Origin: Gemmatimonadales bacterium
GTDB taxonomy: Bacteria > Gemmatimonadota > Gemmatimonadetes > Gemmatimonadales > GWC2-71-9
Assembly: GCA_035553475.1 (NCBI GenBank)
Contig: DATNDQ010000035.1
Coordinates: forward strand, 7,075-71,074
Reading direction: 5' to 3'
Length of the DNA: 64,000 nucleotides
A program made the translations under genes and the position numbers. This document shows, piece by piece, positions 4,954-46,289 of this stretch. The notes below the pieces were generated by a model. That model was not told the DNA's origin. It searched no databases and worked only from the letters and a program-made list of their open reading frames with translations. How positions within the stretch are numbered: the stretch's first letter is position 1; every line of letters begins with the position of its first letter.

Positions 4954-4960
4954 GGATCAG

Positions 4961-6304: not shown

Positions 6305-6326
6305 CAACCTTCATGACGCTCGACGC

Positions 6327-8315: not shown

Positions 8316-8374
8316 GGTGTTGATCCTTGGGAACGGTGTGGATCCAATTGACGGCAACAAACCTCGGCTCACTG

Positions 8375-9040: not shown

Positions 9041-9190
9041 CTCTGTACTGCTCCTCGCAACATGGAACCCGGTCGGGCCGGGGGCGGCTCCCGGTCCGGT
9101 GAAGGTGGACAAGATGCGTCCTGGGACGCTGGGGCGGAAGGTCACCCCGGCGGGATGGATGGGGACGGTTCCGTTTCCAGTGCGACGCTG

Positions 9191-28012: not shown

Positions 28013-28016
28013 CCCC

Positions 28017-28706
28017 ATGGCCGAAGAAACCCACCGGACCTTCAATCATTTCTCCCTCCTGCGGTTCGACGCGCAGTACTGGAGGCAGGAGCCAAAGGTC
28101 CGCCGTCAGGCGGTCGGTACGGCCCTGGAGGTCCTTCGGGGAGGAGTTGACGCCCTTCATCTATATCAGACGTTCGGGGTCGAGGCGGGCACCGATCTCC
28201 TGGTCTGGTCTGCCGTGGATGACGGAGATCCGGCGGTCCCCGCTCGCTTCTTCCCGCACCTGGGGCGGGCGTTGGCTCCGATCCGTGAGCTCATCACCCT
28301 GACCACGGCGCTCTGGGGCTTCACGCAACCGTCGCAGTACACCAAGACCAGGAGCCGACAGGAGATCGATCCGTTCACCGCGGAGCGGTCACCGTACCTC
28401 GTGATGTATCCGTTCACGAAGACCTCCGACTGGTATCAGAAGAGCCGGGAGGAGCGGCGCGACATCATGCTGGAGCACATCAAGCTCGGGAAACAGTACG
28501 AAGACATCACTCAGCTGCTCCTCTATTCCACCGGACTTCAGGACCAGGAGTTCGTGGTGGTGTACGAAACGGCCGATCTGACGCGTTTCTCGAATCTGGT
28601 GACGGAGCTCCGCAGTACACAGGGAAGGCCCTTCACCGAACGGGACACTCCGCTGCATGCCGCCGTCCATCAGGTCGACTGGAGCACCGCCTCGCAATGG
28701 CTGTGA
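28017..28706 (+). CDS. hemQ: chlorite-dismutase-family coproheme decarboxylase (HemQ/ChdC)
   Basis: 229 aa with a Dyp/Cld-like fold sequence (..YLVMYPFTKTSDWYQKSREERRDIMLEHIKLG..EFVVVYETADL..). It sits between hemB and hemE in the heme operon. Confidence 0.8.
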   Translation: MAEETHRTFNHFSLLRFDAQYWRQEPKVRRQAVGTALEVLRGGVDALHLYQTFGVEAGTDLLVWSAVDDGDPAVPARFFPHLGRALAPIRELITLTTALWGFTQPSQYTKTRSRQEIDPFTAERSPYLVMYPFTKTSDWYQKSREERRDIMLEHIKLGKQYEDITQLLLYSTGLQDQEFVVVYETADLTRFSNLVTELRSTQGRPFTERDTPLHAAVHQVDWSTASQWL

Positions 28707-29740: not shown

Positions 29741-30666
29741 GCGAGTCGTTCGGCGTTCTCGTCATGGCGTACGGAGGCCCCGATGCATTGAGCGACGTCG
29801 AGCCCTATCTGCTCGACGTTCGAGGGCACCGGCCCACACCGGGCCACGTCGTGGAGGAAGTCCGAAGCCGCTACGCCGCGATCGGCGGGAGATCGCCCAT
29901 TCTCGAACGCACGCGGGCCCAGGCGCGGGGACTGCAGGAGGCCCTGACGGCGCGGGGCCGGTCCGTGCCGGTGGCCGTCGGAATGCGGCACTGGAAGCCG
30001 CGGATCGCCGCCGGACTCGACCAGCTTCGGGCCCGTGGGGTCGAGCACGTGGTAGGACTCGTTATGGCGCCGCACTACTCCCGGATGTCCGTCGAGCTCT
30101 ACTTCCGGAAGGTCGACGAGGATCTGCAAGCGCTCTCGTTCGTTGGCATTGCGGATTGGCATCTGCTCCCCGGATACGTCACCGCGGCCGCGGATCGCGT
30201 GCGGGACGCACTGGAGCGCTTTCCGGCGGACTCCCGCCACGACATCCCGGTCATCTTCTCGGCCCACAGCCTGCCGCAGCGCATTCTTGAGGCCGGGGAT
30301 CCATATCCCGATCAGCTGGCGGCGTCCATGCGGGCCATCGTCGCACGACTCGGAAACGGCGGGCTCCGCCACCTGTTCGCGTTTCAATCGGCGGCCCTGA
30401 CCCCGGACCCGTGGCTCGGGCCTGACGTGGGGACGGTCCTGAAGCAGCTGGCCGATGCCGGGGAACGCAACGTCGTTGTCGCGCCCATCGGCTTCACGTG
30501 CGAGCACGTGGAAGTGCTCTACGACCTCGATGTGGAGCTGAGGCGCCAAGCCGGGGAGCTGGGAGTGCACCTCGAGCGGGCGGGCATGGTCAACGACGAC
30601 CCGCTCATGATGGCGGGGCTGGCCGATCTGGTGCTCGATGCTGCGCGACGCGAGGGGTGGTCATGA
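29737..30666 (+). CDS. hemH: ferrochelatase (probably coproporphyrin ferrochelatase, CpfC)
   Basis: 309 aa from ATG 29737 (ATGA overlap), with VLVMAYGGPD, FSAHSLPQRIL and GFTCEHVEVLYDLD. Confidence 0.9.
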   Translation: MSESFGVLVMAYGGPDALSDVEPYLLDVRGHRPTPGHVVEEVRSRYAAIGGRSPILERTRAQARGLQEALTARGRSVPVAVGMRHWKPRIAAGLDQLRARGVEHVVGLVMAPHYSRMSVELYFRKVDEDLQALSFVGIADWHLLPGYVTAAADRVRDALERFPADSRHDIPVIFSAHSLPQRILEAGDPYPDQLAASMRAIVARLGNGGLRHLFAFQSAALTPDPWLGPDVGTVLKQLADAGERNVVVAPIGFTCEHVEVLYDLDVELRRQAGELGVHLERAGMVNDDPLMMAGLADLVLDAARREGWS

Positions 30667-32030
30667 CGCACGTGGCGGTGATTGGGGGGGGCATCGCCGG
30701 CCTCGCGGCTGCGCAGCGACTGGTCGAGGCGCAGGTCTCCTGCACCGTGATCGAGCGGGATCATCGGCCCGGCGGGAAGATCGTCAGCCGGTTGGTTGGG
30801 GGCTTCCTGGTGGAGGGTGGCCCCGACTGTTTCCTCTCGTCCAAGCCCGGGGCCGTCGCATTGGCGCGGTCTCTCGGGATCGACGGTCTCCTCCAGGGGA
30901 CTGACCCCGCGCACCGTGGGACGTTCGTCAAGCGTCAGGGCCGCCTCCACCCGCTTCCGGAGGGCATCACCGGACTCGTTCCGTCGCGCATCGCTCCGTT
31001 GCTTACCACCCGCCTCCTCTCTCCCGCCGGCCGGATCCGGGCGGGACTCGAGGCATTCGTGCCACGTGGCGGGGGCGGGGATGAGAGCATCGCCCAGTTC
31101 GCGTCCCGGCGGTTCGGGCTCGAAGCCTATCAGTGGGTCGTGGAGCCGCTGCTTTCGGGAGTCTACGCCGGAGATGGGGAGCGGCTCTCGCTGTCGGCGA
31201 CCTTCCCCCAACTCGCGCGCGCGGAACGCGATGCGGGAGGGGTGCTGCGTTCGACCTGGCGGAAGCGCGGTGGCCCGCCGGGAGAGCGGGGTGGATTCCT
31301 GTCGTTTCCGGACGGCGTCGAGCAGTTGGTCCGTTCGACGGTGGCCAGACTTCCGGCCCAGACCCTGCAGCTGGGCGTCGGTGTGCGGAACGTCACGATG
31401 GAGGGCGGCACCTTCCGCATCCGGTGCGACGACGGAAACACCAACGCCTTCGACCAGGTCATTCTCGCCACCCCGGCATATGTCACTGCCGAGCTCGTCG
31501 AGGATCTGAATCCGTCACTCTCCATCGAGTTGTCCCGGATCCCCTTCGTGTCCTCGGCCACGGTCACGCTGGGCTACACCGACGCACCGGCATTCGGGGG
31601 ATCGGGGTACGTGTGCCCCCGGGCGGAAGGTGGAGCCGCGGTGGCGGTGACCTGGTCGTCCAACAAGTACCGGGGACGTGCCCCGGCCGGCGGTGCCTTG
31701 GTGCGGGTTTTCCTTGGGCGAGCGGGAGACGAAGGGTGGGTCGACGAAGCGGATGAGGCGCTGATCGCTGAGGCGCGCCGCGAACTGGAGAGGGTCTGTG
31801 GGGTCGTGCAGGAGCCGGCGCTGGCGCGGGTGTTCCGTTGGTCCCGGGGGCTTCCACAGTACGTGATCGGCCATCTCGACCGAATCGAGCGGATCACGGC
31901 CCTGTTGCACGGCGTGCCGGGTCTGCATGTCGCGGGAGCGTCGTACCGGGGAGTCGGCATCCCGGATTGCATCACCTCCGGATGGGCCGCCGCCGACCAG
32001 GTCCTTCGCTCCCTGCGGGTCCCCGTCTGA
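30663..32030 (+). CDS. hemY: HemY-type protoporphyrinogen/coproporphyrinogen III oxidase (CgoX)
   Basis: 455 aa from ATG 30663 (ATGA overlap). It has the FAD fingerprint [14 protein letters not shown] and the C-terminal motif [13 protein letters not shown]. Confidence 0.88.
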
Positions 32031-33310
32031 CCCACTCTCGTTCGGCGCTCCTCTTTGAACGGGCGCAGAGACTGTTTCCGGGAGGCGTGAACTCTCCTGT
32101 CCGTGCCTTTCGCGCGGTAGGCGGGCAGCCCGTGTTTCTCGCTCGCGGTTCGGGTGCCACGGTGCAAGACGTCGACGGACGGAGCTACATCGACTACGTC
32201 CTGTCGTGGGGTCCGCTGATCCTCGGCCACGCGCATCCGTTGGTGGTGCGCGCGGTGCAGCAGGCGGCACTCGAGGGCACCAGTTTCGGCGCGCCGAACC
32301 CCCGCGAAGTCGAGCTTGGGGAGCTGATCAAGAAACGGATGCCCGCCCTCGAGCTGATGCGGTTCGTAAACTCGGGCACGGAAGCGGTGATGAGCGCGTT
32401 GCGCGTCGCGCGCGCGTTCACCGGCCGCTCCAAGATTCTCAAGTTTGAAGGCTGTTACCATGGACACGCGGACGGCCTCCTGGTGAAGGCGGGGTCCGGC
32501 GTCGCCACCTTGGCGCTTCCTGACTCGCCGGGCGTACCCAGCGCGACGGCCGCCGACACGCTGGTGGTGCCGTACAACGACCTGCCGGCGGTAGACCGGA
32601 TAATGAAGGAACATGGCAAGACCATTGCCGCGGTCATCGTCGAGCCGGTGGCGGGGAACATGGGCGTGGTTCCGCCCGGGCCCGGATTCCTCGAAGGACT
32701 TCGGGATCTCACGCGGTCGGCCGGCGCCTTGTTGATCTTCGATGAGGTGATGACCGGATTTCGCGCGCATCCGTCGGGCGTGCAGGGGATGACGGGTGTC
32801 ACGCCCGACGTCACCACGCTCGGCAAGATCATCGGCGGTGGCTTGCCCGTGGGAGCCTACGGCGGCCGCCGTGAGGTCATGGAGCTCGTAGCGCCAGCCG
32901 GTCCCGTGTATCAGGCCGGCACGCTCTCCGGAAATCCGCTGGCGATGGCCGCCGGGCTCGCGACGCTCGCTGAGCTCGGTCGCCCCGGCGTCTGGGATGC
33001 CATCGCCAAGACCACCGCGGACCTCGTCGAGGGCCTGAACCAGGCGGCGCAATCGGCCGGCGTACCCTGCGCCGTCAACCGGGTGGGCGCGATGTTCACT
33101 CTGTTCTTCACCGATCACCCGGTCCGCAGCTGGGGTGAGGCTCGGCGCTCCGATGTGGGCCGTTTCGGAGCGTTCTTCAGATCGCTCCTGCAGGACGGCG
33201 TGTACTGGGTGCCTTCGCAGTTCGAGGCCGCCTTCCTGTCCGCCGCGCACGGCCAAGGCGAAATCGACCGAACGGTGGATGCGGCTCGCCGGGCGCTGCG
33301 CGCCATCTGA
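31982..33310 (+). CDS. hemL: glutamate-1-semialdehyde 2,1-aminomutase (start uncertain: ATG 31982 or CTG 32027)
   Basis: It contains [11 protein letters not shown] and a PLP-Lys region ([17 protein letters not shown]). The only in-frame canonical start is ATG 31982, which overlaps hemY by 49 nt. A CTG at 32027 would form a CTGA junction and give a typical N-terminal length. Confidence 0.88.
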
Positions 33311-33364: not shown

Positions 33365-34030
33365 ATGCGCGTACTCGTGGTCGAGGACGATCCCCAGCTC
33401 GCCGCACTCCTTCGCGAGGGATTGCGGGAGCAGCGGATCGATCCGGTTCTCGCAACGACGTTCGCCGAGGGACTCGAACGGGGCAGGGGCACCGATTTCG
33501 ACGTCGTGATCCTCGATGTCCGGCTCCCTGGCGGCACGGGATTCGACCTCTGCCGGCGCCTGCGGGATGAGGGCGTCGCGGCGCCCGTCCTGATGCTGAC
33601 CGCACTCGACGCCGTCGACGATCGCGTCCGCGGTCTGGAGGCGGGGGCGGACGACTATCTCACCAAGCCCTTCGACTTCCGCGAGCTCGTCGCACGGATC
33701 AAGGCCCTGGCCCGTCGCCGCCCGTCGGTCGCCCCGGCCGTTCACAAGATTGCCGACCTGACCGTCGACCTCTCTGCGCGCACGGTCTCGCGCGCGGGCA
33801 AGGCGATCACCCTCACGGTCAAGGAATTCGCGCTTCTCGAGCTCTTCGTACTGCACACGGGTGCGGTGGTGGACCGGGCGGCGATCACGGCGCACGTCTG
33901 GGATGACAACCACGATCCATTCGCCAATGTGCTCGACGTCCTGATCCGGCGGCTCCGCGCGAAGATCGACGATCCGTTCACCCCCAAGCTGATCGCCACC
34001 GTTCGTGGGGCCGGATACCGCCTCGGATGA
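33365..34030 (+). CDS. OmpR-family response regulator
   Basis: 221 aa with a REC domain (MRVLVVEDDPQL..VVILDVRLPG..) and a winged-helix domain (LTVKEFALLELFVLHTG..VRGAGYRL). Confidence 0.9.
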   Translation: MRVLVVEDDPQLAALLREGLREQRIDPVLATTFAEGLERGRGTDFDVVILDVRLPGGTGFDLCRRLRDEGVAAPVLMLTALDAVDDRVRGLEAGADDYLTKPFDFRELVARIKALARRRPSVAPAVHKIADLTVDLSARTVSRAGKAITLTVKEFALLELFVLHTGAVVDRAAITAHVWDDNHDPFANVLDVLIRRLRAKIDDPFTPKLIATVRGAGYRLG

Positions 34031-35295
34031 AGCCGCTCACCCGCCTGCGGCTGCAGCTCACGCTGTGGTACGCCGGCGTCCTCATGCTCATTCTCCTGGT
34101 ACTGGGATTCGGACTCTTCCGCGCCATCCGGCACCAGATCTCCCGCCAGCTCGACCTGTCCCTCGAAGCGGCGGCCCACTCCCTCGAGCAGGCGGCGCGG
34201 GTTCGTGAGGTCGAGCGGGCCCAGACGCGCGGTCCGGTCGCCGACGCGGTGGAGGAGCTCCACATCCCCGATCGCACGCTCTACTTCTTCGATTCGGCAG
34301 GCGGCGCGATCATCCCGTCCACGGTGCCCCCTGAGATGGCCAGCGTGGCCCGGCGAGCGGCGCAGACGGGAAGTGTGAACCTGACGATCGACGGGCCCGG
34401 GGATCACGACACGCGCGTGCATGCCGAGCGGTTCACCGGAGGCGCGGGGACCGGGTACGTGGCGCTCGCCACCGCCGATCGCGTCGAGCTCGAAGACCAG
34501 TACGCTTCGCTCATCGAGACGCTCGCCGCCGGCGCCCTCGCCGCGCTGGTGCTGGTGGCCGCCGGCGGCTGGTTCCTGGTCCGGCAGTCCACCGCGCCTA
34601 TCGAACGCTCGATGGATCGCATGCGGCGGTTCATGGCCGATGCCGCGCACGAGCTGCGCACGCCCGTCACGATCCTGCGCACTCGCGCCGACCTCGCCCT
34701 CGATCAGGCCCGTGACCCCGAGCGGGACGCGGCTCTCCTGAAGGCCGTGGCGCGGGAAGCGGGGAGGATCGGGGCGATCGTCGGCGACTTGCTCACGCTG
34801 GCCCGAGCCGATGCGGGCGAACGTCCGTTGGCGCAGGAGCGCGTGTTTCTGGACGACCTGGCAGCGGATACGGTGAACGATCTGCGTCCCCTCGCCGACC
34901 GCCGCGGGGTGACGGTCGCCGTCGGGTCGTTCGAGGAATGCGCCGTCCGCGGGGATCCCGTCCCGTTGCGGCAGCTGCTTCGGATCCTCCTCGACAACGC
35001 GATCAAGTTCACGCCGGCGGGTGGGCGGGTACGCATCGATGCGGGTGTCGAGAACGGAACGCCGACGGTGCGGGTCGTGGATACCGGGATCGGGATTCCG
35101 GCTGACCAACTGCCGCACGTGTTCGAGCGCTTCTACCGCGGTGAGCATGCCCGTCGCGCCGGAGAAGGGAACGAGGGGGCCGGCCTGGGTCTCGCCATCG
35201 CGCGCTGGATCGCTGACGCCCATCAAGCGAGGATCGACATCTCCTCGAACGGCTCCGGTACCGAAGTCGTCGTGCGGTTTCCCGCCGAGGTGTAA
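34027..35295 (+). CDS. sensor histidine kinase (two TM segments, periplasmic loop, HisKA + HATPase_c)
   Basis: 422 aa with an H-box (FMADAAHELRTPVTIL), an N-box (LLDNAIKFTP) and G-boxes (VVDTGIGIP, GAGLGLAIARW). An ATGA overlap links it to the response regulator gene. Confidence 0.9.
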   Translation: MKPLTRLRLQLTLWYAGVLMLILLVLGFGLFRAIRHQISRQLDLSLEAAAHSLEQAARVREVERAQTRGPVADAVEELHIPDRTLYFFDSAGGAIIPSTVPPEMASVARRAAQTGSVNLTIDGPGDHDTRVHAERFTGGAGTGYVALATADRVELEDQYASLIETLAAGALAALVLVAAGGWFLVRQSTAPIERSMDRMRRFMADAAHELRTPVTILRTRADLALDQARDPERDAALLKAVAREAGRIGAIVGDLLTLARADAGERPLAQERVFLDDLAADTVNDLRPLADRRGVTVAVGSFEECAVRGDPVPLRQLLRILLDNAIKFTPAGGRVRIDAGVENGTPTVRVVDTGIGIPADQLPHVFERFYRGEHARRAGEGNEGAGLGLAIARWIADAHQARIDISSNGSGTEVVVRFPAEV

Positions 35296-35332
35296 GCCTC
35301 CCGTAAGGGGAAACGGGTAGCTTGCGGGCCCT

Positions 35333-36526
35333 ATGCGCCCGGTCCTGGTTTTCCCGTTGTTCCTCTGTTCCGCCCTACCGGCGCAGACGCCTCGCGCGGT
35401 GTCCCGTGCGGATGCGATCGCGCTCGCGGCGGCGCACGGACCACGCGCCGCCACCGCACGTGCCGACTCGGCCGCCGCGTACGGCGACCTCGCGGCCGCG
35501 CGGGCGTTCGCGAACCCTTCGTTCTCGGCCACCTACACGAAATCGGTACCGCGGTACCACTACATCTTCGATATACCGATCGATTGGCCGTGGCTGCGCG
35601 CGCCGCGCGTCGGCGCCGCCGGAGCGGGAGCGGAGGCGGCGCGTGCACGCTTCGCCTTCGAAGTCGCGGCGGTACGTTTCGACGCCGATACGGCCTACAC
35701 AGTCGCGCTCGCGGCCCAGGCTCATGCCCGGCTGTCCCGCCGGACGGCCGGCGACGCCGACTCACTCTTGCGGGTGGCGCGTCTCAGACGGGATGCCGGG
35801 GACGCGAGCGAGATGGATACTCGGCTGGCGGAGATCAACGCGGGGGAGCTGGCCAACAGCGCGGCCGAGGACTCGCTCGCGGCCGTCGCGGCGCTGGTGA
35901 ACCTGCAACTCGTCATGGGGCTTTCCGGTGACTCGGCCGTGGGGCTGAGCGATTCTCTCCAGTTTCCCGACACGGCCGGGGACCAGGTGCCCTCGGCACC
36001 GCTGTCGGTCCTCGAGGCGCAAGCTGAGCTGACGGCGGCTGAACGGTCGCTCACGTTCGCGAAATCCGCGAATCTCCTTTCCCCGAGCTTTCAGGTGGGT
36101 GTCGAACGGGGCGACCCGACCGGGTCGGAGCCCGGCGCGCTCCCGACCTTCGGAATTGCTCTTCCCCTGCCGCTCTTCAACTGGAATGGTGGCGCGATCA
36201 CGCGCGCGCGGGCCGAGCGGGACGCGGCGCAGATCCGTCTCGATGCGACGCGGCGCGCCGCGGCCGCCGAACGAGCCCGCGCGGTTGGAGAGCGTTCGGT
36301 GGCCCTGACCCGAGCCCACCGGGATGCGGGTCTGGTGGCGAGCGCGGATTCGGTGGCCGCGATGTTCCTCAAGGCCTACGGTGAGGGAGCCGTTTCCTTG
36401 CCAGAGGTACTGGAGGCGCAGCGCAACGCGCGTGAGGCCTTGGGCCGCTACGTGGACGATCTGGCGCTGGCCAATACGGCCGTAGGACTGGTCAAACTCC
36501 TCGATGCGACCCGGGAGCATCCGTGA
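35333..36526 (+). CDS. TolC/CzcC-family outer-membrane efflux protein
   Basis: 397 aa with a signal peptide and an OEP-type two-repeat helical sequence. It is the first gene of a three-gene efflux operon. Confidence 0.8.
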   Translation: MRPVLVFPLFLCSALPAQTPRAVSRADAIALAAAHGPRAATARADSAAAYGDLAAARAFANPSFSATYTKSVPRYHYIFDIPIDWPWLRAPRVGAAGAGAEAARARFAFEVAAVRFDADTAYTVALAAQAHARLSRRTAGDADSLLRVARLRRDAGDASEMDTRLAEINAGELANSAAEDSLAAVAALVNLQLVMGLSGDSAVGLSDSLQFPDTAGDQVPSAPLSVLEAQAELTAAERSLTFAKSANLLSPSFQVGVERGDPTGSEPGALPTFGIALPLPLFNWNGGAITRARAERDAAQIRLDATRRAAAAERARAVGERSVALTRAHRDAGLVASADSVAAMFLKAYGEGAVSLPEVLEAQRNAREALGRYVDDLALANTAVGLVKLLDATREHP

Positions 36527-37548
36527 AACGTCTCGTGACACTGCTGGTCCTGATCGCGGCCTGCCACGGCGGCGGACATGAGGGGGACCAGCCGCCGGCG
36601 GCCCCCGTCGCCACCGCGACGGTCCGCCAGGGGCCTTTCACGGAAATCGTGACCGCCATCGGAACGGTTGCGCCGCGGCCAGGTCGCTATGCCGAGCTGG
36701 CCGCTCCAGCGCCGACGCGCGTGGCGCGCATTCTTGTGACGCCGGGGCAGCGCGTCGCCGTGGGTGACACGCTCGTCGTGTTCGAGCAGGCGTCCTTCGA
36801 TGCCGCGGCGCACGCCGCCGACGTGGCCCTCGCGGCTGCCCAGCATGCCGCCGACCGCGCGAACCGGCTGGTGACAGCGGGGATACTGCCCAGGAAGGAC
36901 GCCGATCAGGCCGAGCTGGACCTGGCCGCGGCCCAAACGGCGGATGTTACGGCCCGTCGCAACGCGGATCTCGCGGCGCTGAAGTCCCCCATCGCGGGTG
37001 TGGTCACCCGGGTGAACGCGGTGATGGGAGCGTCCGCTGATCCGTCGCAACCGGTCGTTGCCGTGGCCGACCCCAATGCCCTCGATCTGGTGTTCGGTCT
37101 GTCGGTGGATGCCGCGGGCCACGTACACGCAGGGGACTCGCTGTTCGCCCTCGCCGGCGAGCAGGGCACGGGGGACACGCTGGGACCTGGTCGGGTGCAG
37201 GATGTCGGGGTCGCGGTCGACTCGGTCTCGAGGACGGTCACTGCTCGTGCCCACCTCACTCGCACCACGCGCGTGCTGCGCATCGGCGAAACGGTTTTCG
37301 CCCGCATTGCCGTCAAGACGACGCCGCATGCCACGCTCGTTCCTGAGGTTGCCCTGGTCCCGACGGGGGAGGGGTACCGCGTTTTCGTCGTGGACACCGC
37401 GGGGATCGCGCATGAGCGGGATGTGACGGTGGGTGGGCGCGCGGACGGCATGGCCGAGATCACCAGCGGACTCGCAGTGGGCGAAGTGGTGGTGTCCACC
37501 GGGGCGTACGGCGTCACGGACAGCGCCCGCGTCGCGAAAAAGTCGTGA
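36523..37548 (+). CDS. RND efflux periplasmic adaptor (MFP, HlyD/CzcB-like), lipoprotein
   Basis: 341 aa with a lipobox (LLVLIAAC) and lipoyl-like and beta-barrel segments (..VAVGDTLVVFE.., ..SPIAGVVTRVNA..). A GTGA overlap is present. Confidence 0.85.
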   Translation: MKRLVTLLVLIAACHGGGHEGDQPPAAPVATATVRQGPFTEIVTAIGTVAPRPGRYAELAAPAPTRVARILVTPGQRVAVGDTLVVFEQASFDAAAHAADVALAAAQHAADRANRLVTAGILPRKDADQAELDLAAAQTADVTARRNADLAALKSPIAGVVTRVNAVMGASADPSQPVVAVADPNALDLVFGLSVDAAGHVHAGDSLFALAGEQGTGDTLGPGRVQDVGVAVDSVSRTVTARAHLTRTTRVLRIGETVFARIAVKTTPHATLVPEVALVPTGEGYRVFVVDTAGIAHERDVTVGGRADGMAEITSGLAVGEVVVSTGAYGVTDSARVAKKS

Positions 37549-40500
37549 AGCTGTTCGACGTCCTGGCGCATCAGCGCCGGCTGATCCTCTTGATCGTCGG
37601 GCTCCTGACCGCCGTCGGTGTCTGGTGCGCGCTCCGGCTTCCCTCCGCGATCTATCCCGAGCTCCAGTTCGAGCGCGTCCAGGTAGTCATCCAAGGGTCG
37701 GCCCTGGGTGCGCGACAGATGGTGTTCTCGGTCACCCGGCCGGTGGAAGAGGCGGTGAGCGTCGTCCCGGGCGTGGTCCGGGTCGATTCCCGCACCATCC
37801 GTGGCGCCCTCGAGATGTCGATCTATTTCGCCCCCCGCACCAACATGGTGAACGCGCTCTCGCTGGTTCGAGCCCGCGTCAGCCAGGTGCAGGGCGACCT
37901 GCCTCAGGGACTCGATATCCAAATCGAGCAGATGACGCCGTCCCTGTTCCCCATCCTGTCCTATACAGTAGAAGGGGGAGACCCGGCGACGCTCTACGAC
38001 ATCGCCCGCTACCAGATCAAGCCCATCTTGTCGCGAATCCCCGGCGTCGCGCGTGTGGAGGTGCAGGGCTCCGATATCCACGAGGTCGAGGTCGTCGCGG
38101 ACCCGTCCCGCCTCGCCGGCCTGGGCATGACCTACGACGACATCGCGAACGCCATTCGGAAGGCGACGACCGTCTCCGCGGTGGGCCGAGTGGCGCGGGA
38201 CTACCGGCAGTATCTCGTCGTGACGGATGTGGAGGCGCATACCCCCGAGGATATCGGGGCTGTGGTGCTGTCCAACGGCCTCCGGGTCCGGGACGTGGCG
38301 TCTGTTTCCCTGGGCACCGAAGACAAGGTCAGCATCATCGCCGGTGACGGGAAGCCCGCCGCGCAGATCAGCGTGACTCGGCAGCTGGGCGGGAACAGCA
38401 TCGCGATCGCCGACAGCGTCGCTGGCGCGTTCCGCGGACTCCAGAGTGACCTGCCTCCCGGGGTCCAGGTGAAGGCGGTCTACGATCAGGCCTCCCTGGT
38501 GCGGGACGCGGTACACGGCGTGCGGGACGCGATGCTGATCGGCGCGATCCTCGCCGTCATCGTCCTCTTCCTGTTCCTCCGGCACGGACGCATCACGGCC
38601 ATCAGCGCGACCAGCATTCCGCTCACCCTGATCATCACCGTCGCGGCCATGCGGGCGCTCGGTCAGACGTTCAATCTCATGACGCTCGGCGCCATGGCGA
38701 TCGCCATCGGCCTGGTGATCGACGACGCGGTGGTCATTACCGAGAACATCGCGCGCCATCTGGCGACCGGCGTGGAGCGGCACGTCGCGATCAGGGAGGC
38801 GGTCGCGGAGCTGGTGTGGCCCGTCACGACCTCCACCATCACCACCGTGGTGGTCTTCCTGCCGCTCGGCCTCCTCACCGGCGTGGTCGGCCAGTTCTTC
38901 GCGGCCCTGGCGACGACGCTGACCTGCGCGGTGCTCATCTCGCTCGGGCTGGCGCTCACGATCATTCCCTTGCTTGCGAATGAATTGGTCACCACGGAGG
39001 AAGCGGCACCGTCGGGCGCCGGATCGGTCCTCGACAAAGTCTCCCATGCCCTCAACCGGTTGACCGCCTGGTACGGCGACACGCTTGGCAAGGCGTTGCA
39101 CCACCCCCGCCGGGTGGTGGGCGCGCTGGTCGTACTGGCGGTCCTGGGCGTCGTCGGCTACGAGGTCACCGGCACGGGATTTCTGCCCGAAATGGACGAA
39201 GGCGCTTTTGTGCTGGACTACTTCACGCCCGGGGGAACGGCGCTGGCTGAGACGGACCGGGAGGTGCGAGTGGCGGAGGGGATCCTGGCCCGGACGCCGG
39301 AGATTACCGGCACCTCGCGCCGTACCGGAGCGGAGCTGGGATTGTTCGCGACCCTGCAGAATTCCGGAGACATCGTCGCCCGGCTGAAGCCCGCGAATGA
39401 GCGGGACCGGGACATCTTCGCGGTGATGAACGCTGAACGGGATTCGATCAGTGCCGCGGTGCCGCGACTGCACATCGAGTTCGTCCAGATCCTCTCGGAC
39501 GTCATCAATGACCTGGCCGGCGCGGCCAAGCCCGTCGAGATCAAGCTCTTCGGCGAAAACCTCGACACGCTCGAAGCGTATGCACATCGCCTCGAGCCCA
39601 AGCTGTCCGCCGTTGCCGGTCTCGAGGACTTCTACAACGGCGTGAGTGAACCTTCGGCCGAGCTGATGCTCAAGGTGCGCTCGGCGGACGCAGCCCGCGT
39701 GGGCCTGACGCCGGCGGACGTCGGTGATGGGGTGCAGGGGGCGTTGCTTGGCGTGCCGGCGGGCGAAATACACACCGAGGACCGCCCGATCGCGGTGCGG
39801 GTGCGGGCACCCGATGACGTCCGCTACGATCTGACCAGGCTTGCGAGCCTGCCGATCCTGGGAGCCCACGCGACCCGGCCCACACCGCTGGGAGCGCTCG
39901 CCGACTTCCAGCCGGTGGACTCCCGCGCCGAGCTGTTACGGGAGAATCAACAGCAGATGATCGACATCAACGCGGATGTCGATACGCGATCCCTGGGTGA
40001 CGTCATGGGGGACGTGCGCAAGATCCTGGCGTCGGAGCCGGCTCCCGCCGGAGTCCGGGTCGTGATCGGAGGCCAGTATGCGAACCAGCAGGAGGCATTC
40101 GCCGCCCTCCTGGTGGTCCTGGGTCTCGCGACGCTCTCCGTGGTGGCCGTGATGGTGGTGCAGTTCGAGTCGTTCCTCGAGCCCCTCATCGTCCTGGCGG
40201 TGGCACCGGTCTCGTTCACGGGCGGCCTCGCGGCACTGCTGGTCACCGGGACCGACCTGAATGTCTCCTCGATGATGGGATTCATACTTCTGGTGGGGCT
40301 GATCGTGAAAAACGGCATCATCCTGCTCGACTTCACGAGGCTGCGCATGCGGCGGGATGGCCTGAATCTCGAAACCGCCCTCCGGGATGCCGCGCGCGTG
40401 CGCCTTCGTCCCATTCTGATGACGACCCTCTGCACCCTCTTCGGTCTGCTTCCGCTGGCCCTGGGCCTCGGGGCGGGGAGCGAGTTGCAACGGCCATTGG

Positions 40501-40610
40501 CCCTCACCGTGATCGGGGGCCTCGCGCTTTCGACGCCGATCACGCTGTACGCCGTTCCCGCGCTGCTGGTCGCCATTCGCGGCGGGGGGGCGACGCTCTC
40601 GCGAGCCTAG
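37545..40610 (+). CDS. RND efflux permease (AcrB/CzcA/CusA superfamily)
   Basis: 1021 aa with 12-TM, two-large-loop architecture. Conserved TM4 residues are present (AIGLVIDDAVVITENI). A GTGA overlap is present. Confidence 0.92.
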   Translation: MKLFDVLAHQRRLILLIVGLLTAVGVWCALRLPSAIYPELQFERVQVVIQGSALGARQMVFSVTRPVEEAVSVVPGVVRVDSRTIRGALEMSIYFAPRTNMVNALSLVRARVSQVQGDLPQGLDIQIEQMTPSLFPILSYTVEGGDPATLYDIARYQIKPILSRIPGVARVEVQGSDIHEVEVVADPSRLAGLGMTYDDIANAIRKATTVSAVGRVARDYRQYLVVTDVEAHTPEDIGAVVLSNGLRVRDVASVSLGTEDKVSIIAGDGKPAAQISVTRQLGGNSIAIADSVAGAFRGLQSDLPPGVQVKAVYDQASLVRDAVHGVRDAMLIGAILAVIVLFLFLRHGRITAISATSIPLTLIITVAAMRALGQTFNLMTLGAMAIAIGLVIDDAVVITENIARHLATGVERHVAIREAVAELVWPVTTSTITTVVVFLPLGLLTGVVGQFFAALATTLTCAVLISLGLALTIIPLLANELVTTEEAAPSGAGSVLDKVSHALNRLTAWYGDTLGKALHHPRRVVGALVVLAVLGVVGYEVTGTGFLPEMDEGAFVLDYFTPGGTALAETDREVRVAEGILARTPEITGTSRRTGAELGLFATLQNSGDIVARLKPANERDRDIFAVMNAERDSISAAVPRLHIEFVQILSDVINDLAGAAKPVEIKLFGENLDTLEAYAHRLEPKLSAVAGLEDFYNGVSEPSAELMLKVRSADAARVGLTPADVGDGVQGALLGVPAGEIHTEDRPIAVRVRAPDDVRYDLTRLASLPILGAHATRPTPLGALADFQPVDSRAELLRENQQQMIDINADVDTRSLGDVMGDVRKILASEPAPAGVRVVIGGQYANQQEAFAALLVVLGLATLSVVAVMVVQFESFLEPLIVLAVAPVSFTGGLAALLVTGTDLNVSSMMGFILLVGLIVKNGIILLDFTRLRMRRDGLNLETALRDAARVRLRPILMTTLCTLFGLLPLALGLGAGSELQRPLALTVIGGLALSTPITLYAVPALLVAIRGGGATLSRA

Positions 40611-40670: not shown

Positions 40671-42608
40671 GTGTCTATGGTGCAACCGAAGAACGCCCAT
40701 GGATATGTCCGGTTGACGGAGCCGCTGGTTCGCGACGGAGGGACGCTGCGTCCCGCGACGTGGACCGAGGCCCTCGATCGGGCGGCCGAGGGGTTCCGGC
40801 GGAATCTGAAACCCGGACCCAACCGGCTGGGCATCTTCAGCTGTTCCAAGTCCACCAACGAGATGAATTACCTCGCCGGGAAACTGGCGCGGGTGGCCTT
40901 CGGAACGCACAACATCGACAGCTGCAACCGAACGTGACACGCTCCTAGCGTCGTCGGTCTGGCGACGGTGTTCGGTGCGGGTGGGGGAACCACCTCGTAC
41001 CAGGAGGTGGAAGAAGCCGAGGTCCTGTTCCTCTGGGGCGCGAATGCCCGGGAGAACCACCCGATCTTCTTCCATCACGTGCTCAAGGCGGTGCACCGGG
41101 GGGCTCGGCTCTATGCCGTGGACCCGCGGCGGACGACGTCCGCCCAATGGGCGGACCGCTGGCTGGGCCTCCACGTGGGCTCGGACATCGCCCTCGCCAA
41201 TGCGATGGCACGCGTCATCATTCACGCCGGTCTCGCCGACGAACAGTTCATCAAGAACGCGACCACGGGATTCGAGGAGTACCGGAAGTGCGTCGAGGCG
41301 TATCCGCTCGAGCGTGCGGAGCAGCTGACGGGCGTCCCGGCCGCGGCCATCGAAGAAGCGGCGCTGACCTATGCGCGCGCCAGACGCGCGGTCATCTGCT
41401 GGACGCTGGGGATTACCGAGCACCACAATGCGGTCGACAATGTGTTCGCGCTCATCAATCTGTCACTGCTCACCGGGCACGTGGGCCGGTACGGTTCGGG
41501 CGTGAGCCCGCTCCGCGGCCAGAACAACGTGCAGGGGGGCGGCGACATGGGTGCCATCCCCAACAAGTTCGTCGGGTTCCAGGAGATCCGGGACGCCTCG
41601 ATTCGGGGACGGTTCGAACAGGCGTGGGGTGTCACGCTCCAGCCGGATCACGGGTGGACCATCACGCAGATGTTCGAGGCCATGGACCATGGTGAGCTCA
41701 CCGGGCTCTACGTCATCGGTGAGAACCCGGCCCAGTCGGAAGCCGATCAGCACCGCACGCAACGCCTGCTCGACGGACTCGATCACCTCGTGGTGCAGGA
41801 CATCTTCCTGACCAAGACGGCGGAGATGGCCGATGTCGTGCTCCCCGCGGTCGCGACCTGGTGTGAAGGGGAAGGGACCGTTACCAACAGCGAGCGCCGG
41901 GTGCAGCGAGTGCGGCCGGCGCTGACCCCGCCGGGCGATGCCCGGGACGAGCTGTGGATCCTGGCGCAGATCGCGAAGCGCATGGGATACGATTGGGGTG
42001 AACCCACCGCACAATCGGTGTGGGAAGAAGTGAGAACGCTGGCGCCCGAGATGTTCGGGGGGATGAGCTACGAGCGCCTGGAGGCGCTGGGTGGCATCCA
42101 GTGGCCCTGCCCGGACGAGTCTCATCCGGGCTCGCTCTTCCTGCATGAACGCCTGTGGGCCGAACCGCGCGGCGGACCCGCGGCGCCATTCGCCGTGGTG
42201 GAGCACGATCCGCCGGTCGAGGCACCCGACGCCGAGTATCCGTTCGTCCTGACAACAGGACGCCGCCTCGATTCGTACAACACCGGGGTGCAGACGATGG
42301 GGTACGCCTCGCCGCTGCGCCGGCCGGAGGCGCTCGACATGTCTCCCGAGGATGCGGCGGAGATGGGGCTCGCCGAGGGAGATTCGGTGACGATCGCTTC
42401 GCGGCGCGGGAGCGTGACGGCCCCCGTGCACGTAGAACCGGGACTCCGTCCGGGATTGGTCTTCATGACGTTGCATAACCAGGATGACGTGCGGGTGAAC
42501 TTGCTCACCATCGACGCGACCGATCCACGGTCGGGAACCGCCGAGTTCAAGGCCTGCGCGGTGCGCGTGACGCCCGCCGCGACGGCGGCAGCCGTCGCGA
42601 GCCACTGA
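40671..42608 (+). CDS. fdhA: formate dehydrogenase catalytic (Mo/W-bisPGD) subunit; selenocysteine encoded by TGA 40935-40937; lacks the N-terminal Fe-S domains
   Basis: ORFs 40671-40937 and 40968-42608 are in the same frame, separated only by one TGA. The context NIDSCNRT-U-HAPSVVGL matches the FdhF-type motif CARV-U-HGPSVAGL. Downstream motifs are present (RGQNNVQGGGDMGA, VVQDIFLTKTAEMADVVLP, EFKACAVRV). The protein begins at the position that follows the MopB 4Fe-4S domain in fused enzymes. Confidence 0.85.
40938..40972 (+). promoter_or_regulatory. SECIS-like stem-loop directing Sec insertion at UGA 40935
   Basis: An 11-nt spacer (cacgctcctag) precedes the stem cgtcgtc(40949-55)/gacggtg(40964-70), which includes G-U pairs. 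The apical sequence is ggtctggc and contains GGUCUG, as I recall for the E. coli fdhF SECIS. Confidence 0.6.
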
Positions 42609-42614
42609 GGTCCA

Positions 42615-44486
42615 GTGGATCTTCATCTCCGCGATGCCACGCCGACGGAAGCAGAGCGGGCTGCCATCGATGGCGTCCTGGGCGCGCCGGCGTCCGGATG
42701 GGATGGTGGAGAGCGCGTGGCGGGCCGCGACGGTCACCTGGCCATCGGCGGGCATGAGGCCCGCGCCCGCCGCCACCTGCTGCTTCCCGCCCTGCACGCA
42801 GTTCAATCCCGAACCGGTTGGCTCTCCGAAGGGGCTCTCAACTACCTGAGCGCGCGCCTGACCGTGCCGCTGGCCGAGATCTGGGGCGTGGTGACGTTCT
42901 ACGCGCTCCTGCCGACGCATCCCCGTCCACCGCGGGTGCTCCATGTCTGCGACGACATCGCCTGCCGCATGCGGGGAGCCAACGGGATCTGCGAGCGGCT
43001 GGAGCATGACGTCGGCCAGCCCGTGACGGAGGCCGGTCATGGAGAGACTTCCGAGGCCAGGGACCCCGGCGAGCACGGCTGGTTGCGGAGTCCCTGCCTG
43101 GGATTGTGCGACCAGGCTCCGGCGGCCCTGCTCACCGTCGCGGACGAAAAGCCGATCGAGCGTCTCCTCGGGAACGTGACGCCGACCGGCGCCGTGGTCG
43201 CACTCCGTGGCGTGATCCCCGATGAGCTGCGTGCCAGGCTTCCCCAGAAGGGGACGCCCGGTCTCACCTTGCTCGCTCGGGTGGGCGTCGTAGATCCCGC
43301 CAGTCTTCGCGCGTATCAGGGTGCCGGCGGGTACCGGGCGCTGGCAAAAGCGTTCGAGCTCAAGCCCGAGGGCGTGATCAACGAGATGATCGCGTCCAAG
43401 CTCATGGGGCGCGGCGGCGCGGCGTTTCCGACCGGCCGGAAGTGGGACGCGGTGGCCAAGCAGGGGGCCCGGCCGCACTACGTGATCTGCAACGCGGACG
43501 AATCGGAGCCGGGCACGTTCAAAGACCGGGTCCTGATGGAAGAAGATCCGTTCGCGATCGTCGAGGCCGTCACGATCGCCGGGTATGCGGTGGGCGCGGC
43601 ACAGGGCTACATCTACATCCGGGGCGAGTACCCACTCGCCATTCGCCGCGTGCAAGGGGCGATCGATCAGGCACGTCAGGCGGGGCTGCTCGGTCCGTCG
43701 GTGATGGGGAAGGGGTTCGCGTTCGACGTCGAGATCAGGAAGGGCGCGGGCGCCTATATCTGCGGGGAAGAGACCGCGATCTTCAACTCCATCGAGGGGT
43801 ACCGCGGCGAGCCGCGCAACAAGCCGCCCTTCCCGGTGGCCGTGGGGTTGTTTCGCAAGCCCACACTCGTCAACAACGTCGAGACGCTGGCCAACGTCCC
43901 CGCGATCGTTCTCGAAGGCGGCGCGGCGTTCGCGAAGGTTGGGACCCCGGACTCGACCGGTCCCAAGCTCTTCTGCGTTTCCGGAGCACTCAAGAACCCC
44001 GGCGTCTATGAGGTGCCCTTCGGCACCACGTTGCACCAGCTCATGGCCCTCGCGGGCGGGTCCATGGAAGGCCGGCCCCTGCAGGCGATTCTCCTGGGCG
44101 GTGCCGCCGGGATGTTCGTCCCCGGGAACACTCCCGACATCCCCCTGACCTTCGAAGGCGCGCGTGCGGCCGGCGTCACCCTCGGCTCCGGCGTCGTGAT
44201 GGCGTTCGATGATCAGGTCGACATGAAGGACACGCTCCTGCGCATCGCCGCGTTCTTCCGTGACGAGTCGTGCGGGCAGTGCGTCCCCTGCCGGGTGGGC
44301 ACCGTGCGCCAGGAAGAGGCGCTGCACCGCCTCGTGGCGAACAAGCCGCTCGGCTCCGCGGCTCAGGAGCTCGTCTTGCTGGAGGAGATCGGGGCGGGGA
44401 TGAAGGACGCATCCATCTGTGGGCTGGGACAGACGGCTTACAGCGCGGTGGAATCGGCGGTGAAGCGCCTGAAGGTATTCCAATGA
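42615..44486 (+). CDS. NuoE-like + NuoF-like fusion (NAD(H)/FMN/Fe-S diaphorase subunit of formate dehydrogenase; FdsG-FdsB equivalent)
   Basis: 623 aa. NuoE 2Fe-2S cysteines are present (HVCDDIACRMRG ... SPCLGLCDQAPA). NuoF FMN/NADH motifs (GRGGAAFPTGRKW, ADESEPGTFKDR) and the 4Fe-4S motif (ESCGQCVPCRVG) are present. Confidence 0.88.
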   Translation: MDLHLRDATPTEAERAAIDGVLGAPASGWDGGERVAGRDGHLAIGGHEARARRHLLLPALHAVQSRTGWLSEGALNYLSARLTVPLAEIWGVVTFYALLPTHPRPPRVLHVCDDIACRMRGANGICERLEHDVGQPVTEAGHGETSEARDPGEHGWLRSPCLGLCDQAPAALLTVADEKPIERLLGNVTPTGAVVALRGVIPDELRARLPQKGTPGLTLLARVGVVDPASLRAYQGAGGYRALAKAFELKPEGVINEMIASKLMGRGGAAFPTGRKWDAVAKQGARPHYVICNADESEPGTFKDRVLMEEDPFAIVEAVTIAGYAVGAAQGYIYIRGEYPLAIRRVQGAIDQARQAGLLGPSVMGKGFAFDVEIRKGAGAYICGEETAIFNSIEGYRGEPRNKPPFPVAVGLFRKPTLVNNVETLANVPAIVLEGGAAFAKVGTPDSTGPKLFCVSGALKNPGVYEVPFGTTLHQLMALAGGSMEGRPLQAILLGGAAGMFVPGNTPDIPLTFEGARAAGVTLGSGVVMAFDDQVDMKDTLLRIAAFFRDESCGQCVPCRVGTVRQEEALHRLVANKPLGSAAQELVLLEEIGAGMKDASICGLGQTAYSAVESAVKRLKVFQ

Positions 44487-45436
44487 CCGCCACCCACGCA
44501 GGGCCCCTCATTCCGCTGGGCGGACCACGCCGCGACGTCGAGCTGACCATCGACGGGAAAGCGGTAACGGTGCCGGAAGGCACCACCATCCTCGATGCCT
44601 GCGCCCGGCTCGACCAGACCCTGCCGACGCTGTGCTACCTCGAGACCCTGCATCCGGTGAACGCATGCCGGGTGTGCGTAGTGGAGGTTGAGGGCTCGCG
44701 CGTGCTGGTCCCGGCGTGCTCGCGCGCGGTCGAGGCCGGCATGAAGGTGCGGACCAACACGACGCGCGTGAAGCACAGCCGCAAGATGGTCCTCGAGTTC
44801 CTCGCCTCGTCCGTGGATCTGTCCACCACCCCGCATGTATCGGACTGGCTCTCCGAATACGGTGCCCGGCCCGACCGGTATGGTCCTCCCGACCACCCCG
44901 GCGCAGATGGTGACCGTGACTCCCGTTCTCCGGGGCATCACGAGCCCCCGCGGAACGGTGTCGCGGCCACCGTCGCACAGCCGATGAAGGTCGACAACGA
45001 TCTCTACGTCCGCGACTACGCGAAGTGCATCCTCTGCTACAAGTGCGTCGAAGCGTGCGGCGTGGACTATCAGAACACCTTCGCGATCGCCGTCGCGGGG
45101 CGGGGCTTCGACGCGCGTATCTCGACGGAGTTCGCCGTGGAGCTGCCGGAATCAGCGTGCGTCTACTGCGGCAACTGCATCGCCGTATGCCCCACCGGTG
45201 CGCTGATGTTCAAGACCGAGCGCGATCACCGGGATGCGGGCACCTGGGACGAAAGCCGTCAGCACGTAACCGAGACCATCTGCCCCTACTGCGGCGTCGG
45301 CTGCACGCTGGAGCTCCACGTCCAGGACAACGAGATCGTCCGGGTCACGTCTCCCCTCGACCATTCGATCACCCGGGGCAACCTCTGCATCAAGGGCCGC
45401 TTCGGTTGGCGGTACGTGCAGAACCGCCGTGACTGA
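44483..45436 (+). CDS. NuoG-like Fe-S module = detached N-terminal part of the formate dehydrogenase alpha subunit (2Fe-2S, His/Cys 4Fe-4S, 2x ferredoxin 4Fe-4S, MopB 4Fe-4S)
   Basis: 317 aa from ATG 44483 (ATGA overlap). Motifs include LTIDGKAVTVPEGTTILDAC..LCYLETLHPVNACRVCVVEV, CILCYKCVEACG, CVYCGNCIAVCPTGA and CPYCGVGCTLELHV..GNLCIKGRFGWRYV. The protein stops exactly where the Mo domain would begin. Confidence 0.85.
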   Translation: MTATHAGPLIPLGGPRRDVELTIDGKAVTVPEGTTILDACARLDQTLPTLCYLETLHPVNACRVCVVEVEGSRVLVPACSRAVEAGMKVRTNTTRVKHSRKMVLEFLASSVDLSTTPHVSDWLSEYGARPDRYGPPDHPGADGDRDSRSPGHHEPPRNGVAATVAQPMKVDNDLYVRDYAKCILCYKCVEACGVDYQNTFAIAVAGRGFDARISTEFAVELPESACVYCGNCIAVCPTGALMFKTERDHRDAGTWDESRQHVTETICPYCGVGCTLELHVQDNEIVRVTSPLDHSITRGNLCIKGRFGWRYVQNRRD

Positions 45437-46289
45437 CCGCATCCCGCCGGCCCTTTCCGCGGAGCACCCGCTGTTCGGCCTCGGCTACACGGAGCCGGTG
45501 CGAGAGCGGGAGTACACCAGGCTCGAGGGCGGGCAGCGGAGTGAGCAAGCCCCGGTCGCGGAAGAAGTCCCCATTGCCTTCATCTATAACGGCCGCCCCC
45601 ATGTGGTCATGATGGGGACTCCCGCGGACCTCGAAGACTTCGCCGTCGGGTTCTCGCTGACGGAGGAGATCGTCCCACAGGTGTCCGACCTGTCCCGCAT
45701 CGAGGTCGTTCGTCACGCGCAGGGGATCGAGTTGCAGCTCACGATCCCCGAGGATGCGGGGAAGCGCCTCGAGTCCCGCGGCCGGCAACTGGTGGGGCAG
45801 ACGGGGTGCGGCCTGTGCGGCGTCGAGACGGTCGCCGAAGCCCTGCGACCGCCGCGCGAGCTACCCGTAGGGCGGCCGCCCGTCCCGCGGCACGCGCTCT
45901 GGCGTGCCGAGGAGATCCTGCCTGAGCTGCAGCAGTGGAATCGGGAGACCGGGGCGCTGCACGCGGCGGCGTGGGTGAGCGATGCGGGAGCCCCCGAAGT
46001 GGTGCGCGAGGATGTCGGCCGGCACAACGCGCTGGACAAAGTGATCGGTGCGCTGGCGCGCAGCGGCCGCCGTGCCGATGAGGGATTCCTGCTGGTGACG
46101 AGCCGGGCGAGTTACGAAATGGTCCAGAAGGCGACGGTAGCGGGGGCGAGGATGCTGGCGGCGGTGTCCCGGCCGACGGGACTGGCGGTTCGCCTGGCGG
46201 AGGCGAGCGGCCTGACGCTGGTAGCACTGCTTCGGGGCCGGACGGCCAACGTGTACGCCCACCCCGAGGGACTTACCGGCCCGGATTAG
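45429..46289 (+). CDS. fdhD: formate dehydrogenase accessory sulfurtransferase FdhD
   Basis: 286 aa with the catalytic loop GQTGCGLCGVE and the motif DVGRHNALDKVIG. It starts with GTG and overlaps the upstream gene by 8 nt. Confidence 0.9.
   Translation: MTDRIPPALSAEHPLFGLGYTEPVREREYTRLEGGQRSEQAPVAEEVPIAFIYNGRPHVVMMGTPADLEDFAVGFSLTEEIVPQVSDLSRIEVVRHAQGIELQLTIPEDAGKRLESRGRQLVGQTGCGLCGVETVAEALRPPRELPVGRPPVPRHALWRAEEILPELQQWNRETGALHAAAWVSDAGAPEVVREDVGRHNALDKVIGALARSGRRADEGFLLVTSRASYEMVQKATVAGARMLAAVSRPTGLAVRLAEASGLTLVALLRGRTANVYAHPEGLTGPD

Follow-up and report, generated by a model that had tools for sequence, protein, structure and literature searches.

FdhA, a formate dehydrogenase (FDH), has been described as the most widespread bacterial selenoprotein (PMC13188914). 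Here we describe an FDH gene in a 64,000-nucleotide stretch of DNA from a Gemmatimonadales bacterium (contig DATNDQ010000035.1; the whole stretch is called the window below), in which a TGA codon at 40935-40937 interrupts the reading frame and is followed by a hairpin resembling the selenocysteine insertion sequence (SECIS) of known FDH genes. The window also lies in an 84.8-kb ENA metagenome contig (ERZ27256653 k141_421157). We conclude with high confidence that positions 40677-42608 are a single unbroken gene, which encodes the catalytic polypeptide of a cytoplasmic, NAD-linked, molybdenum- or tungsten-dependent (Mo/W) FDH of the FdsABG type, in which the UGA stands for a metal-ligating selenocysteine (Sec), Sec87, directly ahead of the catalytic His88. 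The genes of the FDH operon and the hairpin described below lie on the forward (+) strand.

With E. coli FdhF the window enzyme shares its fold and domains, a UGA at the homologous position and the His that comes next. It differs in that its catalytic polypeptide is without the N-terminal [4Fe-4S] domain, and in that its partners are NAD-linked rather than those of the hydrogenase-3 complex. In the fdhF SECIS of E. coli, GGUCUG, which encodes Gly-Leu, lies as far from the UGA as in the window, and the spacer to the stem is likewise 11 nt. The window helix has 7 regular base pairs and a loop of 5 nt; it is without the bulged U that serves as a SelB determinant in the E. coli element.

The SECIS of Moorella thermoacetica fdhA has been crystallised with the winged-helix domains 3-4 of SelB (PDB 1WSU; PMC4605307). 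The window element resembles it in having a GGUCU-type apical loop closed by a C-G pair and departs from it in its stem, which is GUCGUC/GGCGAC with a U-G pair. The crystallised RNA, reportedly GGCGUUGCCGGUCUGGCAACGCC, matches the hairpin GUUGCC-GGUCU-GGCAAC, and the latter was seen in three of the homologous loci collected in this study (L057, L066 and L075).

In subunit make-up the locus resembles the FdsABG(D) enzymes of Rhodobacter capsulatus and Cupriavidus necator (PDB 6TGA, 6VW7), with which it has the same cofactor modules and an FdhD/FdsC-type gene in common. In those enzymes, however, FdsA is one polypeptide carrying Cys386, whereas here it is represented by two permuted genes, the residue is predicted to be Sec and the equivalents of FdsG and FdsB are fused; no FdsD was seen. 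Fused Sec-type FdsA-like FDHs from Desulfobacterota, Bacillota and others (L063-L081) are similar in the position of the UGA, the GGUCU hairpin and the NuoE/F-like partners, but they are only 42-48% identical, their gene order is the canonical one, with the Fe-S part immediately ahead of, and contiguous with, the catalytic part, and their motif is HCAR[LT]-U-H as compared to SCNRT-U-H in the window. The recoding itself is of a well-known kind and teaches nothing new; the split-subunit clade and its wide spread among soil phyla are the only modestly novel aspect.

The interrupted reading frame and the enzyme it encodes

At 40920-40980 the window reads AGC TGC AAC CGA ACG TGA CAC GCT CCT AGC GTC GTC GGT CTG GCG ACG GTG (then TTC). 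A first-pass annotation, made from the sequence without database searches, had pointed out that two open reading frames (ORFs), 40671-40937 and 40968-42608, share one frame and are parted only by the TGA at 40935-40937. Sequence and translation bear this out: that TGA is the lone stop between them, and reading through it from the ATG at 40677 gives a gene of 643 codons (40677-42608) with the context SCNRT-U-HAPSVVGL, free of further internal stops and frameshifts. Its landmarks are Sec87 (UGA), His88, Arg280 within an RGQ motif and the true stop, TGA at 42606-42608. The same annotation had expected automated gene calling to fragment the gene, and in the public calls for the source contig it is indeed cut into pieces of 86 and 546 amino acids. 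The homologues have met the same fate. Among the best 120 matches from a search of 5.8 billion proteins, 116 are 524-569 amino acids long, cover 80-85% of the query and are cut at the position of the TGA; the four full-length matches have Cys at the site in three cases (P0068, P0101, P0110) and Arg in one. The catalytic protein of the window is colinear with the full-length Cys homologues.

Pfam finds in the product a complete Molybdopterin domain at residues 14-437 (231 bits), spanning the TGA, and Molydop_binding at residues 525-630 (97.5 bits), and the best matches among solved structures are all FDHs, namely M. hungatei FdhA (7bkb), FdhF of the T. kivui hydrogen-dependent carbon dioxide reductase (7qv7), M. 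extorquens FoDH1 (7e5z), E. coli FdhF (1aa6; E = 3e-136) and R. capsulatus FdsA (6tg9). The NCBIfam model TIGR01591 (Fdh-alpha) gives the catalytic protein 655.4 bits over profile positions 52-672, which is below the cut-off of 666.25; positions 1-50 of the profile are matched by the C-terminal 50 residues of a separate gene, 44483-45436 (54.2 bits). The shortfall is thus due to the splitting of the alpha-subunit gene and not to divergence, and the sub-cut-off score, with 50 residues missing, probably explains labels such as 'molybdopterin oxidoreductase family protein'.

The first-pass annotation had placed the TGA at the Sec/Cys active-site position of FDHs, and alignment arithmetic agrees, mapping it to Cys386 of R. 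capsulatus FdsA and, in E. coli FdhF (1aa6), to residue 140, the selenocysteine. The His directly after the UGA is present, and R280-G-Q is invariant across the homologues aligned. FDHs of active-site class I have been defined by the pattern C/U-H...RGQ (PMC8808070); going by its sequence, the window enzyme belongs to this class, in the form U-H...RGQ. The enzyme is predicted to be a selenoprotein of the FdhA family that incorporates selenium and oxidises formate.

The first-pass annotation had proposed an alignment with Cys- and Sec-containing FdhA homologues. In a genomic scan with one genome per species 80 loci were collected, and the motif was located in 79 sequences (78 loci and the window): the same codon is TGA in 62 and TGT or TGC in 17. 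These loci span at least 10 phyla. Carriers of TGA include Gemmatimonadota, Eisenbacteria, Chloroflexota, Actinomycetota, Acidobacteriota, Planctomycetota, Verrucomicrobiota, Methylomirabilota, Desulfobacterota and Bacillota, and the Cys carriers are mainly Streptomyces, Nonomuraea, Amycolatopsis and Nocardiopsis.

Two further loci deserve mention in their own right. A close homologue on an ENA farmland contig (L087, protein P0046) has CGA (Arg) in place of TGA at positions 412-414 while the hairpin, GUCGUC-GGUCU-GACGAC, is intact; either a Sec-type gene has mutated here very recently, or the base was called wrongly. A locus from an actinomycete metagenome-assembled genome (MAG) (L018, 15470-15640) carries a second FDH, similar to FdnG/FdoG, with an in-frame TGA of its own (ENQARI*HSATV) and a SECIS model score of 32.6 bits.

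The hairpin and the proposed decoding of the UGA

The core SECIS hairpin occupies 40949-40967 and consists of the 5' arm CGUCGUC (40949-40955), the loop GGUCU (40956-40960) and the 3' arm GGCGACG (40961-40967), the 19-nt RNA being CGUCGUCGGUCUGGCGACG. Its stem begins 11 nt past the UGA, a spacing that had been given correctly at first pass, and its loop begins after 18 nt (40938-40955). The free energy of the core is -9.2 kcal/mol alone and -10.6 kcal/mol in context. A possible extended lower stem (40940-40979) appears in the minimum free energy (MFE) fold of the single sequence, and its outer pairs vary between homologues and are poorly conserved.

Under the bSECIS model, the loop should have 3-9 nt with at least one G in its first two positions, the upper stem 4-16 bp, the distance from UGA to apical loop should be 16-37 nt and the MFE should not exceed -7.5 kcal/mol (PMC13188914). 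On all four counts the window element lies inside these limits (a 5-nt loop opening with GG, a 7-bp stem, 18 nt spacing, -9.2 kcal/mol). It also fits a second description, that of a stem of 6-8 bp whose loop has a conserved G some 20 nt past the UGA (PMC4605307), the loop G in the window being 19-20 nt past it. To judge from these features the element is a standard bacterial SECIS of the classical FDH type, and binding by SelB is predicted.

The comparative evidence is considerably stronger than any single fold. In every TGA locus a helix of nucleotides 15-21 with 27-33 (the U of UGA being 1) closes a 5-nt loop, which among the 62 Sec loci is GGUCU in 60 and GGGCU in two, both leading G residues being invariant (62/62). 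Across the 62 aligned sequences the helix is paired in 94% of cells, its six inner pairs being intact in 61/61 distinct sequences; four pairs of the helix have changed on both sides, and one pair occurs as C-G (45), G-C (13) and U-A (3). The helix score in the Sec forms was reached by 0 of 500 shuffles, whereas the 17 Cys loci lack the helix: when it is forced onto them, 65% of cells are paired, no different from controls. A covariance model trained solely on 14 Sec-type homologues, the most distant ones (protein identity 42-48%, another gene architecture), picks out 40935-40979 in the window (40.8 bits; E ~9e-8 in 1.2 Mb), the sole significant match in 64 kb, the runner-up having 13.8 bits (E 1.1). 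The same model gives Sec-type loci 35-55 bits and Cys-type loci 14-33 bits.

The codons of the loop tell a similar story. Among the 49 closest Sec-type sequences they are frozen (Gly GGT in 48/49, Leu CTG in 49/49), whereas the Gly codons six and eight positions further along make use of all four synonyms, which indicates an RNA constraint on top of the coding constraint.

By analogy with the established bacterial mechanism, the C-terminal winged-helix domains of SelB would bind the mRNA hairpin at 40949-40967, and SelB with GTP, competing with release factor 2, would bring Sec-tRNA(Sec) to the ribosomal A site occupied by the UGA, with the full 643-residue protein as the outcome. Sec87 would then ligate the Mo or W of the bis-(pyranopterin guanine dinucleotide) cofactor, the sulfuration of which would need FdhD. 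Three translationally coupled genes further downstream, for a NuoE/F-like flavoprotein, a NuoG-like Fe-S protein with the [4Fe-4S] domain that is usually part of the catalytic subunit, and FdhD, probably provide the rest of the enzyme, and the assembled subunits would pass electrons from formate to NAD+.

Several observations speak against this interpretation and have to be set beside it. The 61 nt from the TGA onwards fold with an MFE of -29.2 kcal/mol, a stable hairpin of the kind that the first-pass annotation had anticipated, and this is only modestly better than shuffled sequence (z = -2.2; 6 of 200 shuffles fold equally well). The MFE also prefers a register 3 nt off the conserved one, the gap being about 1.8 kcal/mol with outer pairs included. 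This single-sequence register is the one that had been proposed at first pass: its 5' arm, cgtcgtc, stands, while its 3' arm, gacggtg (40964-40970), drawn with the loop ggtctggc, lies 3 nt 3' of the conserved arm and is not upheld, this register being paired across the alignment in 77.5% of cells as compared to 94%. Rfam yields no family at gathering thresholds across the window, nor one near the site when the limit is relaxed to E = 10. Searches of the window with tRNA and protein tools, and the gene calls of contig bases 6874-84734, gave no selA, selB, selD or tRNA-Sec; for the window, this is as the first-pass annotation had stated. Finally, that this clade of FDHs incorporates selenium is something we infer from bacterial Sec decoding as it is known elsewhere. 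We regard the Rfam result as uninformative because short bacterial SECIS elements inside ORFs may not be represented there, and the hairpin as more than chance because the comparative evidence (TGA in 62 of 79 sequences, the covarying helix and the covariance model) is decisive.

The machinery missing from the window does adjoin the FDH gene in some orthologous loci. Searches by tblastn with SelA, SelB and SelD queries gave matches in L006, L030, L053 and L016 and none in the window, those in L006 and L030 being confirmed by Pfam. In these two loci, a Chloroflexia MAG and a Thermoleophilaceae MAG respectively, SelA, SelB (with the SelB-specific winged-helix domain) and a SelD-type protein adjoin the FDH gene. 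Both loci, and one from a Geodermatophilaceae MAG (L041), also have a tRNA-Sec no more than a few kb from the FDH orthologue, found by ARAGORN and confirmed by Rfam RF01852 with 60-78 bits. The sel machinery is located at 3646-8200 and 6952-7044 of L006 and at 5368-9175 and 15062-15151 of L030; in L041 only the tRNA-Sec was seen, at 9775-9866. A 93-nt 'tRNA-Val (gac)' called by ARAGORN in Actinomycetospora lemnae (L042, 7893-7985) is probably a false positive, Rfam finding no tRNA there. The FDH gene suggests that the source organism of the window, a soil bacterium, has the Sec-decoding trait and presumably such machinery as well.

No sel genes being seen on the contig bases covered, one might suppose that decoding of the UGA yields something other than Sec, always or at times, with Cys, Trp or Ser being inserted through near-cognate read-through or a mis-acylated tRNA(Sec), if selenium or some of the sel machinery were lacking in the source organism. 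Such a scenario has little to recommend it and we give it only a very slight chance, for a SelB-type hairpin with a GGUCU loop is strongly constrained in this lineage and its close relatives, as would be expected only with SelB-dependent decoding, and the orthologues in other phyla adjoin selABCD.

Selection on the gene and the meaning of the stop codon

Purifying selection acts on the gene on both sides of the TGA. Two close relatives, L088 and L089, come from independent forest and farmland soil metagenome assemblies and share with the window not only the TGA and the hairpin but also the gene neighbourhood. Against L088, at a synonymous divergence (dS) of 0.14, the ratio of nonsynonymous to synonymous divergence (dN/dS) is 0.10 for the whole gene, 0.11 upstream of the TGA and 0.10 downstream of it; against L089, at a dS of 0.85, the corresponding values are 0.07, 0.08 and 0.07. 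In the 49 closest Sec-type sequences, moreover, codons +1 to +4 past the TGA encode an invariant His-Ala-Pro-Ser while their synonymous sites are free, all synonyms being used and the Ser codon switching between AGC/AGT and TCN. Invariant amino acids with freely varying synonymous codons show that right after the supposed stop selection acts on the protein.

These patterns bear directly on the possibility that the gene is a pseudogene, i.e., that a nonsense mutation from TGC or TGT to TGA killed a Cys-type FDH and the hairpin is coincidental. Gene callers do give two fragments, Cys-type orthologues do exist and no sel genes are seen on the contig, all of which would suit a decayed copy. A dead gene would nevertheless not be expected to show a dN/dS of 0.07-0.10 downstream of the TGA over a dS of up to 0.85, to be devoid of additional stops and frameshifts, or to have its TGA in 62 loci of many phyla and in the independent soil assemblies of close relatives, nor would its hairpin be conserved and covarying solely in the TGA forms. 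We therefore consider a pseudogene extremely improbable. The first-pass annotation had named, as the picture that would contradict its proposal, close relatives with a sense codon alongside a copy clearly degraded elsewhere; the relatives do not present that combination, and the copy in the window evolves at a dN/dS of 0.07-0.10.

Alternatively, translation might stop at the TGA, giving an 86-residue peptide, and restart at GTG 40968, giving a 546-residue protein, with the two assembling non-covalently and no Sec being involved. The GTG is in frame, and the family tolerates fission in the sense that this FDH is already split elsewhere into separate genes. Such an arrangement would, however, leave untranslated the ten codons from TGA to GTG (HAPSVVGLAT), which are invariant or almost so as protein and variable synonymously and which include the catalytic His, and the metal ligand would be absent. 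There is no spacer and no ribosome-binding site; a start codon is not universal at that point, and the homologue fragments begin at different residues, with lengths of 524-569 amino acids. Two real genes are in our opinion a most unlikely reading of the locus, about on a par with the pseudogene.

A genome-wide reassignment of UGA is rejected because TGA is the terminator of 14 of the 27 high-confidence ORFs in the window, this gene included, and is the commonest stop there, and an assembly error is rejected because the TGA is also present in independent assemblies of relatives. It is on codon patterns, dN/dS and stop-codon usage that we exclude the pseudogene, the assembly error and the stop-and-restart gene pair in favour of one intact gene with an in-frame Sec codon.

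The operon, the divided alpha subunit and the neighbouring genes

The FDH gene heads an operon of overlapping or closely spaced genes at 40677-46289. Behind the catalytic gene (40677-42608; identified by Pfam, TIGR01591, PDB matches and dN/dS) stands, at 42717-44486, a fusion of a NuoE-like [2Fe-2S] protein with a NuoF-like FMN- and NAD(H)-binding protein, the equivalent of FdsG plus FdsB and similar to HydB (Pfam 2Fe-2S_thioredx, Complex1_51K, SLBB and NADH_4Fe-4S; NCBIfam nuoF_fam and NuoE; PDB matches HydB and FdsB). The stop of this gene is overlapped by the start of the next, 44483-45436, which encodes the NuoG-like Fe-S part of the alpha subunit (317 residues), with a [2Fe-2S] and two [4Fe-4S] clusters and a C-terminal Molybdop_Fe4S4 domain (Pfam Fer2_4, Fer4_7, Molybdop_Fe4S4). 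The last gene, 45429-46289, encodes FdhD, the sulfurtransferase for maturation of the FDH molybdenum cofactor (Pfam FdhD-NarQ, 233.7 bits; TIGR00129 above cut-off). A scan of the operon for promoters and terminators gave nothing beyond chance.

All the modules of the FdsABG type (NuoF-like, NuoE-like, NuoG-like Fe-S and catalytic) are thus present in the operon, which does not have the single-polypeptide FdsA with the gene order G-B-A. Its order is catalytic part, NuoE/F fusion, Fe-S part, FdhD. Residues 12-313 of the Fe-S protein match residues 15-304 of R. capsulatus FdsA, and residues 11-633 of the catalytic protein match residues 307-933. From this tiling, and from the division of the TIGR01591 profile into positions 1-50 and 52-672 between the two proteins, it follows that the alpha subunit has been cut cleanly between its [4Fe-4S] and molybdopterin domains and that the halves have been reversed around the flavoprotein gene. 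The arrangement is not peculiar to the window. Among the loci of at least 59% identity (within L002-L062, window aside), all 44 of the 44 that reach the Fe-S gene have the split and permuted order, in many phyla and with Cys-type Streptomyces included; the count omits 13 further loci of at least 59% identity in which the sequence is too short or interrupted. Homologues of 42-48% identity have, by comparison, the canonical adjacent or fused arrangement.

A search of a literature collection found no paper on a split FdsA architecture, an absence of evidence that is no proof of novelty, and nothing specific on selenium use in Gemmatimonadota. It is conceivable, though we put it forward tentatively and lean somewhat against it, that the window enzyme represents a large, undescribed and mainly Sec-type clade of NAD-linked FDHs, marked by fission of the alpha subunit at the [4Fe-4S]/molybdopterin boundary with its halves permuted around NuoE/F. 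Such a clade would be spread over soil phyla that are mostly considered aerobic or are not well known for using selenium (Gemmatimonadota, Eisenbacteria, Chloroflexota, Dormibacterota, Eremiobacterota, Acidobacteriota and Actinomycetota), and the UGA together with the split would have led to its near-uniform annotation as truncated 'molybdopterin oxidoreductase'. If this were true, selenium-dependent formate oxidation in soils would be systematically under-counted.

In practical terms, the two fragments ought to be joined into a single selenoprotein annotation, gene callers routinely misreading such recoding as a broken gene. The split and permuted alpha subunit represents a natural experiment on where an FDH can be cut, and the split clade offers candidate cultured hosts for a Sec-type NAD-linked FDH, for instance Actinomycetospora lemnae DW7H6 (L042); for the more distant type, Niallia oryzisoli is a cultured carrier.

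The genes ahead of the operon are of other kinds. A two-component system is followed by an operon for efflux of the resistance-nodulation-division (RND) type (outer-membrane factor, membrane-fusion protein and AcrB-type pump) at 33365-40610. The RND operon ends 66 nt ahead of the FDH gene, a synteny common to L088 and L089. Before it, at 24026-33300, is a contiguous haem biosynthesis cluster comprising GluTR, PBG deaminase, HEM4, ALAD, a Chlor_dismutase-family protein (ChdC/HemQ-like), URO-D, ferrochelatase, an amine-oxidase-type protein (HemY-like) and an aminotransferase (HemL-like), a gene set that suggests the coproporphyrin-dependent pathway.

A crude scan of the window for in-frame TGA codons flanked on each side by coding signal turned up a single candidate; its filter missed the FDH site, and the scan is hence uninformative. 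The candidate, at 20677-20679, has a coding signal of high G+C at third codon positions on both sides, over 124 codons upstream and 421 downstream, in the context SIEVRPIWEM*GSVSDPVEAV; instead of a second Sec codon it most likely marks the junction of two adjacent genes in the same frame, for a YCII protein and then a sigma factor. At the beginning of the window (1-2956; upstream on the contig, L082 1613-9837) a bacterial alpha-2-macroglobulin gene of 1964 amino acids, the end of which lies in the window, is followed by one for a PBP1c-type penicillin-binding protein, alpha-2-macroglobulin and PBP1c being a known gene pairing.

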